IMG/VR virus record: IMGVR_UViG_3300029587_000019 | Location: 1 to 40,932 of that record | Direction: 5' to 3' (one strand) | Length of the DNA: 40,932 nucleotides | Origin: a virus | Part shown: positions 18,029 through 35,419 of the stretch, piece after piece | Position numbering within the stretch: the stretch's first letter is position 1 | Layout of the letters: every line of letters begins with the position of its first letter | Position numbers and translations under genes: made by a program | Notes under the pieces: model-generated | The model's input: the letters and a program-made list of their open reading frames with translations, nothing else | The model's database searches: none | What the model was told of the DNA's origin: nothing

Positions 18029-18622
18029 TTACTGGATCTCATCCCAGACAAATCGGCCTTTTCCACTGTTGCGCCACTGACCGATGCCTGAGAACCGGCC
18101 ATAATCCAGCCATTCCCGGACGGCTTTCTCGTGATCGTCGCAGAGGCAGATCACCCGGAACTCGCAAGTAGCGCCTGCGGGGATTTCCTCACTCATGGCA
18201 AGGCTGACGCGCTCGCCCTGCGCCGTCTGCGCTCTCAGGGGGCGCTGGCACTCACCAACGGGGCCGTCAAACTCCAGCGGGATCACGCGAGGCTCCGGGA
18301 AGATCAGCTTATCGATTTCCTTCTTGTAGGCCTTGATCTTCTCACTGGCCGTGCCCTTGACCTTGCGGAGACCGCCGCAGGTGTCCTTGAAAAAGCCCTT
18401 GATCTGGTAGTCATACAGGAACGGGGTGCCGTCCTCCATCCGGGGGAACACCGTCATGGCCTTTTCCGCCACGGCATCAGCTCCCAGCGCGGCAACTTCG
18501 TCCTCAACGCTTAAAGCATCCGGGGATTTGGAACCGATAAACTCCCGATATACGTCTGGGTTTGCAGGGCTTGTGCCAAGAATGGGTTCCGTAAATGTGA
18601 TCCGTACCTTAATTTCCTTCAT
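18029..18622 (-). CDS. Unassigned early protein (197 aa) with a glycine-rich C-terminal motif GIGQWRNSGKGRF
   Basis: First gene after the Cro-like repressor. No family recognised. Confidence 0.7.
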   Translation of the reverse strand: MKEIKVRITFTEPILGTSPANPDVYREFIGSKSPDALSVEDEVAALGADAVAEKAMTVFPRMEDGTPFLYDYQIKGFFKDTCGGLRKVKGTASEKIKAYKKEIDKLIFPEPRVIPLEFDGPVGECQRPLRAQTAQGERVSLAMSEEIPAGATCEFRVICLCDDHEKAVREWLDYGRFSGIGQWRNSGKGRFVWDEIQ

Positions 18623-18640
18623 TCCTTTTTCCTCCTGTTA

Positions 18641-18865
18641 TTACTCACTGCTGGATTCGAACAGTTCGTCCACCGTCACGCCGTACATCCTCGCCAGCTT
18701 CTTGTGGTACTTCCGTGCCGGTCGCCAGTCGCCCAGCTCCCAATGCGTCACACAGGACAAGTCCACATTCAGTTTCTTTGCTACCTGTGCACGGGTCAGG
18801 TTGGAACGTTCTCGAAGTTCCTTCAATGCCAAGTCATGTGCCCTCCTTTCGGTGTGAGAATTCAT
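18641..18865 (-). CDS. Cro-like XRE-family HTH repressor
   Basis: 74 aa with LKELRERSNLTRAQVAKKLNVDLSCVTHWELG. Divergent from the CI-like gene. Confidence 0.8.
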   Translation of the reverse strand: MNSHTERRAHDLALKELRERSNLTRAQVAKKLNVDLSCVTHWELGDWRPARKYHKKLARMYGVTVDELFESSSE

Positions 18866-18878
18866 TGACTGCGGCAGA
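18864..18878. repeat. Left arm of a perfect 15-bp inverted repeat (ATTGACTGCGGCAGA)
   Basis: Its reverse complement is found at 19020-19034. Confidence 0.9.
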
Positions 18879-18893
18879 AATATGTGGTATGGT
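18865..18893 (+). promoter_or_regulatory. Putative sigma-70-type promoter (TTGACT-17-TATGGT) abutting the Cro-like start codon
   Basis: Hexamers and 17-nt spacer counted by hand. Confidence 0.45.
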
Positions 18894-18899
18894 AAGCAT

Positions 18900-19016
18900 G
18901 GGAGTTAAACTACGCGCCAAATGGCGTACTCTGTTGCAGAGGGGTATTCCATTTAGCAAACGAGTTCGCTTCCAACCGCCCCGAAGTTTGTTGCAGAGAC
19001 TTCGGGGCGGTTTTTT
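18900..19016 (+). ncRNA. Putative ~115-nt small RNA, antisense to the leader of the Cro-like operon
   Basis: Bounded by the promoter at 18865-18893 and the intrinsic terminator at 18976-19016. No ORF. Confidence 0.4.
18976..19016 (+). terminator. Rho-independent terminator
   Basis: ccgccccgaag-tttgttgcagaga-cttcggggcgg-tttttt. The stem is 11 bp and perfect. Confidence 0.8.
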
Positions 19017-19019
19017 ATC

Positions 19020-19034
19020 TCTGCCGCAGTCAAT
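19020..19034. repeat. Right arm of the 15-bp inverted repeat (tctgccgcagtcaat)
   Basis: Exact reverse complement of 18864-18878. Confidence 0.9.
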
Positions 19035-19069
19035 ACCCGCCGAAACCTCATGAATGTGAGAAATCACGC

Positions 19070-19098
19070 TTGACACGACCCGGAAAGCGTATTACAAT
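19070..19098 (+). promoter_or_regulatory. Promoter for the CI-like operon (TTGACA-17-TACAAT)
   Basis: Hexamers and spacer counted by hand. Confidence 0.65.
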
Positions 19099-19172
19099 GA
19101 AATCGCCAAAAGACATTGCAAAAGCCGCTTTTATGGGGGCTGGTTTTCGTGTACCCTTTTCCGGTGGGCTTA

Positions 19173-19223
19173 GGTATATGATACCTCACAAAATTCGGTT
19201 TGTCAATTAGCTTAACCGAATTT
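19173..19223 (-). promoter_or_regulatory. Leftward promoter (TTGACA-17-TATCAT on the minus strand, 19206..19178) with two overlapping palindromic operator candidates
   Basis: GGTATatgATACC (19173-19185) covers the -10. AAATTCGGTT/AACCGAATTT (19191-19200 / 19214-19223) brackets the -35. Confidence 0.6.
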
Positions 19224-19265
19224 CATCGGTTTTGGATAAGTGCACAATTTCGGGGGTTGTTTATT

Positions 19266-19643
19266 ATGGATGTTGTACTTGAGCGAATTCTGTCTTTGCT
19301 TCCTTGCGGTGAAAACGGGAAAATAATGCGAGGGGCAAAAAAAGATTTTGCTCAAAGCATCGGGTATGACAGTGGAGATATTGTTTCAATGTGGATAAAA
19401 GGAACAAGTTTCTCTTACAAAAACAAACTTCATGAAATTGCCGCAAAATATCACGTATCCGTTGAATGGCTCCAGGGCAAAACGGAAGATAAGAGCATAA
19501 AAGAAACCCCCGATCCGAAGATCGAGGGTGTGAGCGCGGAAGCGCAGGAAATATTAGATTATATCCGGGATGCGACACCCGCCGAACTGGCGGAAGTCTG
19601 CCGGTATATCGGGTATCTGAAAAGCAAGAGGGGCACGGAATGA
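19266..19643 (+). CDS. CI-like repressor (phage CI HTH type)
   Basis: 125 aa with FAQSIGYDSGDIVSMWIKG...IAAKYHVSVEWLQGK. Confidence 0.75.
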   Translation: MDVVLERILSLLPCGENGKIMRGAKKDFAQSIGYDSGDIVSMWIKGTSFSYKNKLHEIAAKYHVSVEWLQGKTEDKSIKETPDPKIEGVSAEAQEILDYIRDATPAELAEVCRYIGYLKSKRGTE

Positions 19644-20083
19644 AACTGAACCCAGATTGCTTGCGGGATATTATGCTTTTGGTCGAAGATCGTATTTCCG
19701 TTGAAACTGCGGTTGAAAATCCAAATGGGCTAAGAAAATTTAGCTATGTCAGCATTCCCTGTTTGGTGCGCTTGCTTCCTGACAGCTATTCAAAAGAGGA
19801 GATCATATATCATGTTGTACAGCTTTCAGAAAGCGGATACTTAAAAACAGATTTTTCCTTTGCAACAAGCGAAATGTTTGGATACTTTTACTTGAATACA
19901 ATTTATCACATCACGCCAAAAGGCCATGACTTTATCGCAAACATCGGGGGAAAAGAAAGCTGGGCAAAAACAAACGCTGTTTTAAAATCCTTGAAGTCAA
20001 TATCTCTATCGGTAATTGAAACGGTGGCAAAGGGTATCACTTCGGCCATAGTAGATCAATACATTGCAGGCTTTCAGGCATAA
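19640..20083 (+). CDS. DUF2513-like winged-helix protein
   Basis: 147 aa with LRDIMLLVEDRIS...EEIIYHVVQLSESGYLK. Confidence 0.6.
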   Translation: MKLNPDCLRDIMLLVEDRISVETAVENPNGLRKFSYVSIPCLVRLLPDSYSKEEIIYHVVQLSESGYLKTDFSFATSEMFGYFYLNTIYHITPKGHDFIANIGGKESWAKTNAVLKSLKSISLSVIETVAKGITSAIVDQYIAGFQA

Positions 20084-20853: not shown

Positions 20854-20862
20854 GTGAAAAAC

Positions 20863-20899
20863 CCGGCCCCGCCGCCTCTGCAACAAACGGCGGAGCCGG
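20863..20899. terminator. GC-rich hairpin whose loop reads GTTTGTTGCAGA on the minus strand. The T-run is on the minus strand.
   Basis: ccggccccgccgcc-tctgcaacaaac-ggcggagccgg, preceded by gtgaaaaa on the plus strand. Confidence 0.4.
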
Positions 20900-21057
20900 A
20901 AGCAAGCCGGGGGACGTCGGCTTGCCGTAATCAAAGCGTAGCAAAAACAGGGTTGGGTGGGCAAGTCCCAAAGCTTGGTTTTTGGCATTTTCAGCCGTTT
21001 AAAAGTTTGTGCCGCCTTTACCCATATTTTGATTTTGGGGGTAAGGAGGCACTTTTT

Positions 21058-33629: not shown

Positions 33630-35419
33630 GCGCCGCTCCTTAATGTCTCCGCTGCGTTGTACGGCACCATTTTTCGCGCCAATACCGCGCCGTCAAGTTC
33701 GGTTGTCAAATTGATTACAATACTTCCCACACCGCCGGTCGCCAATGCACCAACACCGGACGCAATAGAGTTGCCGATCGCCGCGACGCCGGATGCTCCA
33801 AAATCGACTGATGCCGTTCCAAAGTCCATGCCAGATGCAATGCTGCGCTTGATATTGCCGTATTCGTTATCCCAGCCCTCGCCCAAGCCAAGCACCATGT
33901 TTTCGCCGATCCCGGCGAAGACGCGGGACGGTGAGTGAATACCGAGAACGCCTTTTACGCCATCCACAATGCCGTCGAAAAAGCCCTTTACCATGTTTGT
34001 TAGCCAATCGCCCATTCTCTTGATGCCTTCCCAGATTCCTTTAACAAGGGCTATTCCGATTTCGATGGCGGCTTCGCCGATATAGCCTATGGACTGGATA
34101 AACGCGGATGCAAGGTTTTTGATAATCTCAGGGGCTGCATCCAAAAGCTTTGGCAGATTATCAATTAGGCCTTCTGCAAGCGCAACAATAAACATTGTGC
34201 TTGCTTCAATAAGGGCAACAAGTGTGTCTGGCTGAGTCAATATTTCCGCAATCTGTACCACGCAATCAACCAACTGCGGTGCAATTTCCGGCATGGCCGA
34301 CGCGATGCCTTGTACCAGAGCAATTAGCATTTGCACTCCTGCGTCTAATAATTGCGGAATAACCGACAAAATTGCTCCCGTAATTTCAGGGGCTATATCC
34401 GCAAGTGCCGCAACAATTCCGGGAGCTGCGTCTACAACTCCCTGCACTAAAGCAGTGGCAGCACTCACAAGCGACGGCAAAACAGAGCTAACAAGCGATG
34501 GCAACTGCTCGGAAATAACCGGGGCAAGCCGTGTAATTAAATCCCCAAACCCGGTAAAAATCTTTTCAATGCGCGGAAGAATATTTTCGGCCGCTTTGCC
34601 GACCGAATAGGTGAAGTTTTCAATCAGCTGGTCAAGGTCTGCGTTATCGTCTGCAATTCCGGTTACAAGGTTTGACCAAGCGGATTTCATCATGTTAACG
34701 CTGCCTTCGATAGTGCTTGCCGCTTCCTCCGCCGTTGTCCCGGTGATCCCCATTTGATCTTGGATCACATGGATTGCTTCAATCATCTTGTCGAAAGAAA
34801 CGCTATTGACTGTGTCCGCTGTGACCTCGACGGTATCGCCCAACACCCCTGAATCGTTGATAAGCCGCGCCATTTCTGTCGCCGTGCCACCATAACCGAG
34901 TTTGAGGTTATCCAGCATGGTATAGTTTTGCTTTGCGAAACCTTGATAGGCGTTTTGGATCATTTCCATACTTGTGCCCATCTTGTTCGCGTTATCCGCC
35001 ATGTCAATGACAGCCTGGTTTGCTACCTCCGCCGCCTTTTCTGTGTCACCGCCAAGCCCCTGCAACAGCGACGCCGAAAATGACGTAACTGTGTCCATAT
35101 ACTCATTAGCGGAAAGCCCTGCGGTTTCATACGCACGGTTCGCATATTCTATGACTTTATCGGCAGAGTTTTTGAACAGTGTCTCTACGCCTCCGACAAG
35201 CTGCTCGTATTCCGCGTATCCGTCAATGGATTTTTTTGTCAATATGGAGATGCCGGTTGCAGCTGCCGTTAAAGCAGCCGCACCAGCCTTCGCCGCCGTT
35301 GCAAGCCCGCCTTTCAGTTTGCTTGCCAACGCATCCGCTTTTTGTCCTGTCTCGGAAAACCCACTGTCCACGCCGCTGTCGTCCACAGTTACCTTGATAA
35401 ACAGGTCCATTAAATTCAT
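33626..35419 (-). CDS. Tape measure protein
   Basis: 597 aa, Ala/Gly/Ile-rich helical, positioned after the chaperones. Confidence 0.85.
   Translation of the reverse strand: MNLMDLFIKVTVDDSGVDSGFSETGQKADALASKLKGGLATAAKAGAAALTAAATGISILTKKSIDGYAEYEQLVGGVETLFKNSADKVIEYANRAYETAGLSANEYMDTVTSFSASLLQGLGGDTEKAAEVANQAVIDMADNANKMGTSMEMIQNAYQGFAKQNYTMLDNLKLGYGGTATEMARLINDSGVLGDTVEVTADTVNSVSFDKMIEAIHVIQDQMGITGTTAEEAASTIEGSVNMMKSAWSNLVTGIADDNADLDQLIENFTYSVGKAAENILPRIEKIFTGFGDLITRLAPVISEQLPSLVSSVLPSLVSAATALVQGVVDAAPGIVAALADIAPEITGAILSVIPQLLDAGVQMLIALVQGIASAMPEIAPQLVDCVVQIAEILTQPDTLVALIEASTMFIVALAEGLIDNLPKLLDAAPEIIKNLASAFIQSIGYIGEAAIEIGIALVKGIWEGIKRMGDWLTNMVKGFFDGIVDGVKGVLGIHSPSRVFAGIGENMVLGLGEGWDNEYGNIKRSIASGMDFGTASVDFGASGVAAIGNSIASGVGALATGGVGSIVINLTTELDGAVLARKMVPYNAAETLRSGA

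Follow-up and report, generated by a model that had tools for sequence, protein, structure and literature searches.

Our data indicate that the leader of the lytic, Cro-like operon of this phage probably harbors an accessory 'moron', in which an antisense small RNA gene is enclosed by an inverted repeat that would act both as the boundary of the cassette and as a helix in the leader; we assign this reading a probability of roughly 60%. The window (i.e., the whole 40,932-nt stretch of viral DNA analyzed here) supports a self-contained rightward promoter-RNA-terminator unit, predicted to be antisense to the Cro-like operon leader, and this unit looks like a small-RNA gene of the lysogeny side. 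Compared with its relatives, the cassette also looks like a moron that is present or absent together with its own expression signals. Furthermore, judged from sequence comparison, the inverted repeat marks the conserved limits of interchangeable cassettes that form a family at one site, and is not an inversion site.

The leftward early operon opens with a gene (18641 to 18832, minus strand) that encodes a 63-aa Cro-like HTH protein with matches to HTH_3 and HTH_31. The initial annotation had this gene start at 18865, whereas most of the 87 Cro-like homologues begin at the position of TTG 18832, which is residue 12 of the window ORF. We therefore take TTG 18832, preceded by the SD sequence GGAGG at 18846-18842, as the start, so that the left arm of the inverted repeat falls within the 5' UTR, approximately 32 nt ahead of the start codon and not on it. 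The leftward (lytic) promoter is found upstream of the leader, as had been proposed, at 19206-19178 (minus strand, TTGACA-17-TATCAT) and reads through the cassette; the antisense relationship between the small RNA and the leftward leader holds from the promoter onward, with the end of the leader moved from 18865 to the new cro start. Facing it is a rightward promoter (19070-19098, plus strand, TTGACA-17-TACAAT) directed toward a CI-like repressor candidate of 125 aa (19266 to 19643, plus strand) with PHROG transcription-regulator matches, and the start sites of these face-to-face switch promoters lie approximately 65 bp apart. The CI-like gene is strongly mosaic among relatives (i.e., its alleles are swapped). 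An allele-specific inverted repeat (AAATTCGGTT/AACCGAATTT, 19191-19223) brackets the -35 of the leftward promoter and switches along with the CI-like allele; a comparable repeat around the second (CI) promoter was rejected, being weak and lost in relatives.

We found three copies of the operator-like motif TGTGAG-N3-TCA (TGTGAGNNNTCA) in the window, where 0.24 are expected, and all three are in the switch region (at 18853, 19055, and 19179). The first, O1 (TGTGAGAATTCAT, 18853 to 18865), adjoins the -35 of the cassette promoter with a 1-nt overlap and is centered at approximately -41; its central 3 nt differ among relatives. O2 (TGTGAGAAATCAC, 19055-19067) lies beside the rightward promoter, and the two together (19055 to 19098) are kept in relatives whether or not these carry the cassette, while O3 (19179-19190) overlaps the -10 of the leftward promoter. 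The motif adjoins the arms of the inverted repeat and is not found inside them. The idea that the 15-mers of the repeat are 'distal operator copies' is therefore set aside, given that the operator-like sequence that is repeated is TGTGAG-N3-TCA; what survives of the cis-antisense immunity RNA initially suggested is a putative antisense unit with its own promoter and terminator.

The cassette promoter (18865 to 18893, plus strand) consists of TTGACT (18865-18870), supplied by the left arm, and TATGGT (18888-18893) after 17 nt, both as initially annotated, and additionally carries an extended -10 TG (18885-18886), so that it is near consensus (9/12 plus TG). The predicted small RNA of approximately 118 nt (18899 to 19018, plus strand) folds into a long imperfect hairpin (18899-18974) and a terminator hairpin with a free energy of -57.4 kcal/mol (z = -6.98), and the fold of the cassette plus strand is 6 kcal/mol more stable than that of the minus strand. 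The intrinsic terminator (18974 to 19018, plus strand) is formed by a 16-pair stem (18974-19012), a 7-nt loop, and T6, and is unidirectional since the minus-strand hairpin is followed by UUGGAAG. These predictions agree with the unit originally drawn as an RNA of approximately 115 nt ending at a terminator at 18976-19016, with its figures adjusted. GUUGCAG is present in both predicted loops of the small RNA; the same loop sequence also occurs in a conserved phage terminator hairpin at 20860-20903.

Sequence variation was compared across 74 contigs. Nucleotide diversity is 0.0036 in the small RNA versus 0.055 in cro, and that of the cassette as a whole is 5-15x below the adjacent cro gene; such very low diversity could reflect recent spread instead of selection. 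At terminator pair 18980-19006 we found a compensatory series for the plus strand, C-G in 56 contigs, U.G in 17, and U-A in 1. Wobbles that pair in the plus strand occur in 21 contigs (at 18980-19006, 18987-18999, and 18977-19009), and minus-only G.U changes amount to 3 singletons. Variation in RNAs of the window type is too sparse for co-variation at the first hairpin. An Rfam scan of 18300-19700 at E <= 10 returned no family for the small RNA; what did match in this interval was due to chance or to hairpin resemblance, as with miRNA models on the terminator. Two coding interpretations were considered and rejected. The plus-strand ORF from ATG 18898 (approximately 51 aa) lacks a ribosome-binding site, crosses the terminator to 19053, has no family match, and is not hydrophobic. 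A type I toxin-antitoxin arrangement was dismissed since neither of the overlapping minus-strand ORFs (32 aa and 80 aa) is hydrophobic or has a ribosome-binding site.

The inverted repeat itself is as first described, with ATTGACTGCGGCAGA at 18864-18878 and its exact reverse complement at 19020-19034, and it grows to 19 nt when one A-C mismatch is allowed (18864-18882 / 19016-19034). This arm pair is the sole inverted repeat of at least 12 nt with a spacing of 20-500 nt in the window. First-order Markov simulations produced a perfect 15-mer inverted repeat in 4 of 300 cases, giving an expectation of 0.013 per window, which agrees with the earlier judgment that a chance origin is unlikely. The left arm (18864 to 18882) covers the -35 TTGACT plus the beginning of the spacer and has a nucleotide diversity of 0 (74 contigs). 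The right arm (19016 to 19034) lies directly after the T-run of the terminator, outside the small RNA, and coincides with a mosaic junction in 'class C' relatives. No third copy of the 15-mer was found in the window at <=2 mismatches, and the one 3-mismatch match, at 34227, is at chance level; when the 14-mer TCATTGACTGCGGC was scanned, chance matches predominated among the matches listed. A role of the right arm as a leftward promoter was rejected, given that a -35 is present with no -10 at usable spacing in any cassette type read.

Our data indicate that the cassette behaves as an all-or-none block among phages with the same flanks. The segment from 18850 to 19032 is absent from 8 distinct IMG/VR contigs (L099-L106), which have the 'empty' junction CCTCCTTTC|AATACCCGCC, and one of these (L101) shares its CI region with the window. 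In the empty site of the L099 type, a further 13 nt, belonging to O1 and lying outside the left arm, are missing. L303, compared with cassettes that carry the FuFi-1 RNA, retains O1, and what it is missing coincides exactly with the element between the repeat ends. Related phages contain, at this site, nothing, the FuFi-1 RNA, a second RNA of approximately 115 nt, or micro-protein genes. FuFi-1 (Rfam RF02986), to which no function was assigned (Weinberg et al. 2017, PMC5737381), is matched in sister cassettes at 121, 106, 92, and 71 bits. The identical promoter design is found in all sister cassettes, and a matching right arm in most. Across the family, a reversed copy of the promoter -35 and spacer follows directly upon the terminator. 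The arms co-vary (CAGA, CAGAAA, CGGGGA, CAGGGA, CGGGCG, and CGGGAAA) and are very different in L130 and L131/L260. Both sides are changed in 8 of 19 pairs, and none of 500 shuffles reached the observed score. The length of the cassette varies (166-171 and 215-426 bp); this freedom fits an RNA helix and counts against DNA looping that depends on phase.

We hypothesize that the arms act in the leftward lytic transcript, the only transcript in which they would be present together. The arms most likely pair there and loop the insert out, as we infer. The arm helix is part of the predicted MFE structure of the leftward RNA in 13 of the 13 cassette types tested, with pair probabilities of 0.80-1.00, and the predicted segments are complementary, stable, and co-varying within one transcript, as a long-range leader helix should be. 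Mismatches between the arms have no clear strand bias, since both A-C (minus-strand G.U) and G-T (plus-strand G.U) occur, and the co-variation is therefore silent on whether RNA pairing or arm identity at the DNA level is maintained. In three independent arm families the repeat starts exactly at the -35, for which an RNA helix has no requirement.

The mechanism that we propose is as follows. The strong cassette promoter (TTGACT, extended -10), with O1 at approximately -41 in the same layout as the CI promoter with O2, would produce the highly structured RNA of approximately 118 nt that stops at the strong intrinsic terminator. Because of the position of the cassette, this RNA would be perfectly antisense to the cro-bound leftward transcript and could therefore damp leaky lytic transcription, through convergent transcription and formation of an RNA duplex; additional action in trans is possible. 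In the leftward transcript, a long-range helix between the arms would loop out the antisense copy of the insert and might serve as an insulator or as a processing stalk of the RNase III type, which would let cro expression tolerate the insert.

We weighed this proposal against a role of the arms at the DNA level with no role in RNA, in which they would be either fixed docking ends for the exchange of cassettes or the terminal repeats of a mobile element, small and non-autonomous, and would serve to insert, excise, or swap cargo. Several features suit such an element: the gap in L303 is bounded exactly by the repeat ends, L309 contains a footprint-like CATT-TTG-GTCAATG, varied cargoes lie between near-identical ends with a common promoter module and a terminator module common to several, diversity is low on diverged cro backgrounds as if the element had recently spread, and the right arm is a mosaic junction. 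However, approximately 125 of approximately 125 copies occupy a single site, between cro and the CI promoter, and none is in another context. Furthermore, neither a target-site duplication nor a flanking direct repeat was found, the 20 ORFs scanned contain no transposase, and the O1 nucleotides missing from the L099-type empty site lie beyond the left arm. The type of cassette also follows the cro lineage, which argues for mostly vertical descent, and fine co-variation of the inner arm positions is unexpected if these are merely tolerated by a transposase. We consider such a DNA-level role unlikely on balance.

Less likely still is that the 15-mers bind one regulatory protein (a repressor or region 4 of the RNA polymerase sigma factor) that loops or blocks the DNA. 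The core TTGACTGCGGC is kept in both arms across most cargo types and is also compatible with recognition by a protein, and both arms adjoin operator-like sites in class C relatives. Yet the arms are asymmetric, and L131, L260, and L130 keep the architecture with entirely different arm sequences. The inner palindrome CTGCNGCAG, which we tried as an operator and rejected, has 2 copies only (one in each arm), is not above chance, and is gone in sister cassettes. The distance between the arms changes in steps of one base (166-171 bp) and follows no helical phase, identical CI and Cro alleles function in 'empty' phages that lack the arms, and TGTGAG-N3-TCA is the better operator candidate.

The initial annotation had also raised the possibility of an inverton, in which a site-specific recombinase flips 18879-19019, turning the terminator against the lytic promoter and thereby blocking cro. 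The geometry does fit, with short perfect repeats bracketing a promoter and terminator segment; the promoter would be rebuilt in either orientation because the -35 is inside the arms, and a repeat starting at the -35 would follow. Arms that are identical within lineages while their sequence shifts between lineages are likewise expected from recombination between them. Only one of the two orientations is seen, however. The inverted junction has 0 matches in the metagenome collection, where 27 of 27 contigs have the RNA in the window orientation, among them contigs of 60-77 kb that are probably prophages with host flanks. None of at least 51 IMG/VR contigs with the window cassette and approximately 45 with sister cassettes is inverted, and all 102 distinct sequences upstream of cro that contain either kind share one orientation. 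The sole recombinase, among 20 ORFs scanned that include most of the recombinase-sized ones, is a large serine integrase of 466 aa, for which arms of 15-19 bp are too short to be its type of site; no recombinase domain turned up in ten further candidate ORFs, and an enzyme of the host is conceivable. The arms of L131/L260 furthermore contain single-base bulges. With no flipped segment in approximately 125 assemblies, a source in which virion-derived contigs would favor the lytic-competent orientation, and no invertase in the ORFs scanned, we conclude that this is an accessory cassette and not an invertible switch; the tempting claim of phase variation was removed as unsupported, and inversion, including inversion too rare for assemblies to show, is given very little credence.

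The comparative picture is, in our judgment, of more interest than the single RNA, since one site accepts many swappable cargoes and the repeat stays complementary despite sequence change. We tentatively suggest, at less than even odds, a 'plug-in' switch architecture, in which the cro leader offers a fixed docking slot for swappable mini-genes of the lysogeny side and a co-varying repeat would fold the lytic transcript around the insert. As read from these sequences, such an architecture, in phages mostly of human-gut metagenomes, appears not to have been described before; our literature searches yielded no description of repeat-bounded morons and a single paper on FuFi-1. Were it true, FuFi-1 would gain a first functional context and the cargo RNAs could be suspected of tuning prophage induction, the window RNA maybe via its two GUUGCAG loops. 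If the window RNA is made, it would be a new phage regulator at the lysis-lysogeny decision point of abundant human-gut phages. It becomes testable how phages place accessory genes in essential regulatory leaders without breakage, what role FuFi-1 has, and whether the cassettes set prophage inducibility. The host of this temperate human-gut phage is probably among the Clostridia, an assignment kept tentative because annotated phage records gave distant matches only (fecal 'Bacteriophage sp.' and, at 74%, a head gene of Flavonifractor phage Chenonceau). The MAG labels of L128 and L129 (Bacteroidaceae and Mailhella) belong to short contigs that are probably mis-binned.

The cassette shares features with several known systems. 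Like the invertons of gut bacteria, it has short inverted repeats around a promoter-bearing segment in the range of 100-500 bp, but it occurs in one orientation in approximately 125 assemblies with no invertase in the ORFs scanned. RNase III cleaves inverted repeats that have paired in the RNA of Correia-type miniature elements and in rRNA processing stalks. Here too repeats flank a short promoter-carrying insert, and the predicted read-through helix has 15-20 bp, while the cassette occupies only one site in each genome and its target is not duplicated. Lambda OOP, P22 sar, and P1/P7 c4 are cis-antisense RNAs of phage immunity regions, and in coliphages 186 and P2 the lytic and lysogenic promoters are face-to-face. 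As in the former, a short terminated RNA of the lysogeny side would overlap an early lytic transcript, and as in the latter the switch promoters are convergent. The window RNA has no sequence or Rfam relationship to OOP, sar, or c4, however; it is optional among close relatives and overlaps the untranslated leader only, 53 nt from the cro ribosome-binding site. FuFi-1 in the sister cassettes fills the identical slot between arms of the same kind, uses the same promoter design, and likewise ends in a terminator, whereas the window RNA falls outside the FuFi-1 model (no match at E <= 10) and has approximately 118 nt against the 160-270 nt matched there. Phage morons, which lie between phage genes and are expressed from the prophage, are accessory genes that bring along a promoter and terminator of their own. 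The cassette resembles them in having its own promoter and terminator, in being present or absent between collinear relatives, in pointing with the lysogeny genes, and in being dispensable for the basic switch. It differs from them in that its cargo is a non-coding RNA placed antisense inside the leader of the lytic operon, and in the co-varying inverted repeat at its two ends, which is common to the whole cargo family.

The region belongs to a temperate phage and forms its switch, with a Cro-like gene (63 aa, HTH_3/HTH_31) and the early genes beyond it on the leftward side and a CI-like regulator (19266-19643, 125 aa) on the rightward side, followed by genes for a DUF2513 protein, another HTH protein and a large serine integrase of 466 aa. 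The closest annotated phage is distant (Flavonifractor phage Chenonceau, head gene, 74%), and the relatives analyzed here, gathered by pattern and protein-guided searches, come from human-gut metagenomes. A consensus scan recovered four elements, including those of the initial annotation: on the plus strand a cassette promoter (18865-18893, TTGACT-17-TATGGT, with an extended -10 TG), a terminator (18974-19012; 16 pairs, 7-nt loop, then T6) and the CI promoter (19070-19098, TTGACA-17-TACAAT), and on the minus strand the lytic promoter (19206-19178, TTGACA-17-TATCAT). The lytic and CI promoters are convergent, and ~65 bp separates their start sites. Three copies of the motif TGTGAG-N3-TCA are present in the window (0.24 expected), all of them inside the switch: O1 (18853) adjoins the cassette-promoter -35, O2 (19055) adjoins that of the CI promoter, and O3 (19179-19190, minus strand) overlaps the lytic-promoter -10. 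The Cro-like start had been placed at 18865, which we revise: since residue 12 of the window ORF is where Cro-like homologues begin, the true cro start is, by this comparison, TTG 18832, with GGAGG at 18846-18842, 9 nt before it. ATG 18865 is the mechanical ORF start, and the start of the homologues matches the position of TTG 18832.

Three further features of the surroundings were observed. A second repeat, AAATTCGGTT/AACCGAATTT, brackets the -35 of the lytic promoter (19191-19223), and among relatives it switches together with the CI-like allele (19266-19643), with Cro, O1-O3 and the cassette unchanged; sequence comparison indicates modular immunity swapping whose junctions lie either at 19190 or precisely on the right arm of the inverted repeat described below. 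Within the CI-promoter leader (19099-19170), a weak stem is followed by the motif GGGGGCTGGTTTT; relatives whose CI leaders are otherwise different have it too (GGGGGTCTGGTTTTTT, GGGGGCTTGGTTTTTT), and it may represent an attenuator or second short RNA located between the face-to-face promoters. A weak CRISPR-DR33 match (18500-18535, minus strand, E = 0.34) inside a 197-aa early ORF scored 19.9 bits, below the gathering score of 39, and was taken as chance.

The perfect 15-nt inverted repeat of the initial annotation is present, ATTGACTGCGGCAGA (18864-18878) recurring as its exact reverse complement at 19020-19034, and a repeat finder extended it to 19 nt with one mismatch (18864-18882 and 19016-19034, here referred to as the arms). 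The arms are the sole inverted repeat of at least 12 nt with 20-500 nt spacing in the whole window, and chance would give a perfect 15-mer repeat of this type 0.013 times per window, as estimated from first-order Markov simulations (4 of 300). The left arm lies within the cro 5' UTR, off the start codon. Between the arms, a predicted RNA (~18899-19018) would form a long imperfect hairpin and a terminator hairpin, with a folding energy of -57.4 kcal/mol (-32.7 +/- 3.5 for shuffles; z = -7), and matches no Rfam family at E <= 10. Folding is 6 kcal/mol more stable on the plus than on the minus strand. Across 74 related contigs the terminator pair 18980-19006 is C-G in 56, U.G in 17 and U-A in one; plus-strand wobbles (pairs 18980-19006, 18987-18999 and 18977-19009) were found in 21 of the 74, and changes that wobble solely on the minus strand comprise just three singletons. 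These changes are evidence that the plus strand is functional. Furthermore, the hairpin is followed by UUGGAAG on the minus strand, and the terminator should therefore halt rightward transcription only. A coding reading was rejected, as the ORF from ATG 18898 has no ribosome-binding site, reads through the terminator and matches nothing; no toxin-like ORF was found opposite the unit. A small-RNA gene is the best reading of the unit, and sequence and comparison support the antisense small-RNA cassette proposed initially.

By position, the RNA is perfectly antisense to 18899-19018 of the ~340-nt cro leader, and its promoter is convergent with cro-leader transcription. Because O1 lies at about -41 of the cassette promoter, as O2 does at the CI promoter, the cassette is probably co-regulated with CI. 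Most simply, the RNA would give the lysogen an additional safeguard against leaky lytic transcription; it may also act in trans. Nucleotide diversity across the 74 contigs is far lower in the cassette (0 in the left arm, 0.0036 in both the RNA hairpin and the right arm, 0.017 in the terminator) than in the neighbouring cro gene (0.055 in the coding sequence, 0.085 at third codon positions), a pattern explained either by recent spread or by strong constraint at the sequence level. Each predicted loop of the RNA reads GUUGCAG. Both are matched by the loop, UUUGUUGCAGAGG, of a minus-strand intrinsic terminator at 20900-20862 (within 20856-20903; 16 pairs and T5), which occurs whatever cassette type a phage carries and also where there is no cassette; among ~28 distinct relatives its 13-nt loop never varies, whereas compensatory changes and minus-strand G.U wobbles are found in its stem. 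Of the non-self duplex partners for the RNA in the window, the complementary plus-strand site ranks first (z about -4.5), and we regard this predicted pairing as a lead, not a finding.

We found the cassette at 98-100% identity in at least 51 IMG/VR contigs, 1 MAG contig and 27 metagenome contigs. Relatives whose Cro is 85-89% identical cleanly lack it, including one (L101) with the CI region of the window; the empty site reads CCTCCTTTC joined to AATACCCGCC, and 18850-19032 is therefore an insertion/deletion. At the same site, relatives with Cro 83-85% identical carry a 265-426-bp cargo containing the Rfam RNA FuFi-1 (RF02986; 121, 106, 92 and 71 bits), which has no known function (PMC5737381). 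Other contigs contain a second, unrelated RNA of ~115 nt (L141, L190, L194), a larger protein gene (L260) or very basic micro-proteins (L129, L130, L159, L247) of 36 aa (MACTCKPKRRS...) or 43 aa (MAKNSVRTSK...), which match no Pfam family and are each preceded by a 5' hairpin sequestering the ribosome-binding site. The promoter design is identical in all cargo types. Judging from the empty relatives, the switch can do without every one of these cargoes, and thus the unit is an accessory cassette (moron) and the slot a hot spot.

Several details of the sister cassettes were also recorded. In L107, L110, L148 and L131, the FuFi-1 model match is preceded on its 5' side by a ribosome-binding site and by a conserved short ORF (MTN/KLLTLPVP...). 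The terminator module CCGCCYCGTGTTACCGCACGGGGCGG plus a T-run is common to L129, L130, L141, L159 and L247 despite unrelated cargoes, and their stem base is also that of the window terminator, in which the insert is longer. A ~1.1-kb insert in L260 lies between two copies of the cro 5' region (CAATCGTTCTCACTTCCTTTTT), and one complete FuFi-1-like unit and the beginning of a second lie downstream.

Almost every cassette is bounded alike, by the -35 and first part of the promoter spacer and by a reversed copy right after the terminator. A core, TTGACTGCGGC, is common in the arms, and their inner positions are lineage-specific yet matched between arms (CAGA, CAGAAA, CGGGGA, CAGGGA, CGGGCG, CGGGAAA). 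The micro-protein contig L130 has TTGACGATGGCAGAAAAA opposite TTGACCTTGGCAGAAAAA. The pair in L131 and L260, GACATCCCCTCGGAAGCGG/CCGCTCTCCGAGGGGTGTC, is quite unlike the others, includes two single-base bulges and is placed as elsewhere relative to promoter and terminator. In an alignment of 19 distinct arm pairs, 90.6% of cells were pairing, 8 of the 19 pairs had changed on both sides, and none of 500 shuffles scored as high for co-variation; when the partner was shifted by one to three columns, pairing fell to 29-53%. Given these statistics, arm complementarity as such is maintained.

Our preferred reading, to which we give a probability of roughly 0.4, is that the arms act as an RNA helix in the lytic transcript. 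Both arms are present only in this leftward transcript; the small RNA contains neither, the left arm being the -35 of its promoter and the right arm lying past the terminator. In predicted minimum-energy structures of the leftward transcript the arms pair in the window and in 12 of 12 other cassette types (pair probability 0.80-1.00). Arm spacing varies from 166 to 171 bp in single-base steps and also from 215 to 426 bp, which is harmless to an RNA helix and awkward for phase-dependent DNA looping. Such a helix would seal off the antisense copy of the insert; as an insulator, or as a processing stalk of the RNase III type, it would let cro be expressed despite the insert.

Several observations count against the RNA helix, namely that arm mismatches have no strand bias, the core is conserved in sequence, the repeat begins exactly at the -35, and one related contig (L303) has a missing segment limited exactly by the repeat ends, with another (L309) resembling a footprint. 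All of these also fit arms that are DNA-level ends of a mobile or exchangeable cassette; however, we found no target duplication, no transposase among the 20 ORFs scanned and no copy at a second site, and we consider this explanation unlikely. That the arms are protein sites seems less probable still; the 15-mers had been proposed as distal operators, a reading that found no support, and by sequence O1-O3 are instead the candidates for that role.

The invertible switch of the initial annotation was not borne out. The inverted junction TTCATTGACTGCGGCAGAGATAAAA is absent from the metagenome collection, and all IMG/VR cassette copies share the window orientation, as do all 27 metagenome contigs matched by an internal 26-mer of the RNA; several of these, at 60-77 kb, are longer than the ~40-kb phage contigs and are therefore probably prophages with host flanks. 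The promoter end lies beside cro in 102 of 102 distinct cro-upstream sequences, covering every cassette type, these counts being taken from assemblies in which virion-derived contigs would be biased towards the lytic-competent orientation. No small invertase or tyrosine recombinase was found among the 20 ORFs scanned. Rare inversion below the sight of consensus assemblies is very improbable.

What is new here is that one slot of the switch hosts a family of interchangeable cassettes bounded by repeats, FuFi-1 among them. A nucleotide motif of the FuFi-1 cassettes, ACCAAMCTTTTGAC, also occurs in the unrelated cassette of contig L258 and could represent either a leader peptide or an element of the RNA beyond the Rfam model. 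The L258 cassette (about 65-270 nt upstream of cro) carries a 16-nt repeat, ATTGCATAGCCCCCAG/CAGGGGGCTATGCAAT, inside its transcript at the 5' and 3' ends, and the 5' arm is also part of a hairpin sequestering the ribosome-binding site. This transcript-end repeat recalls the 5'-3' fold-back of hok-type mRNAs.
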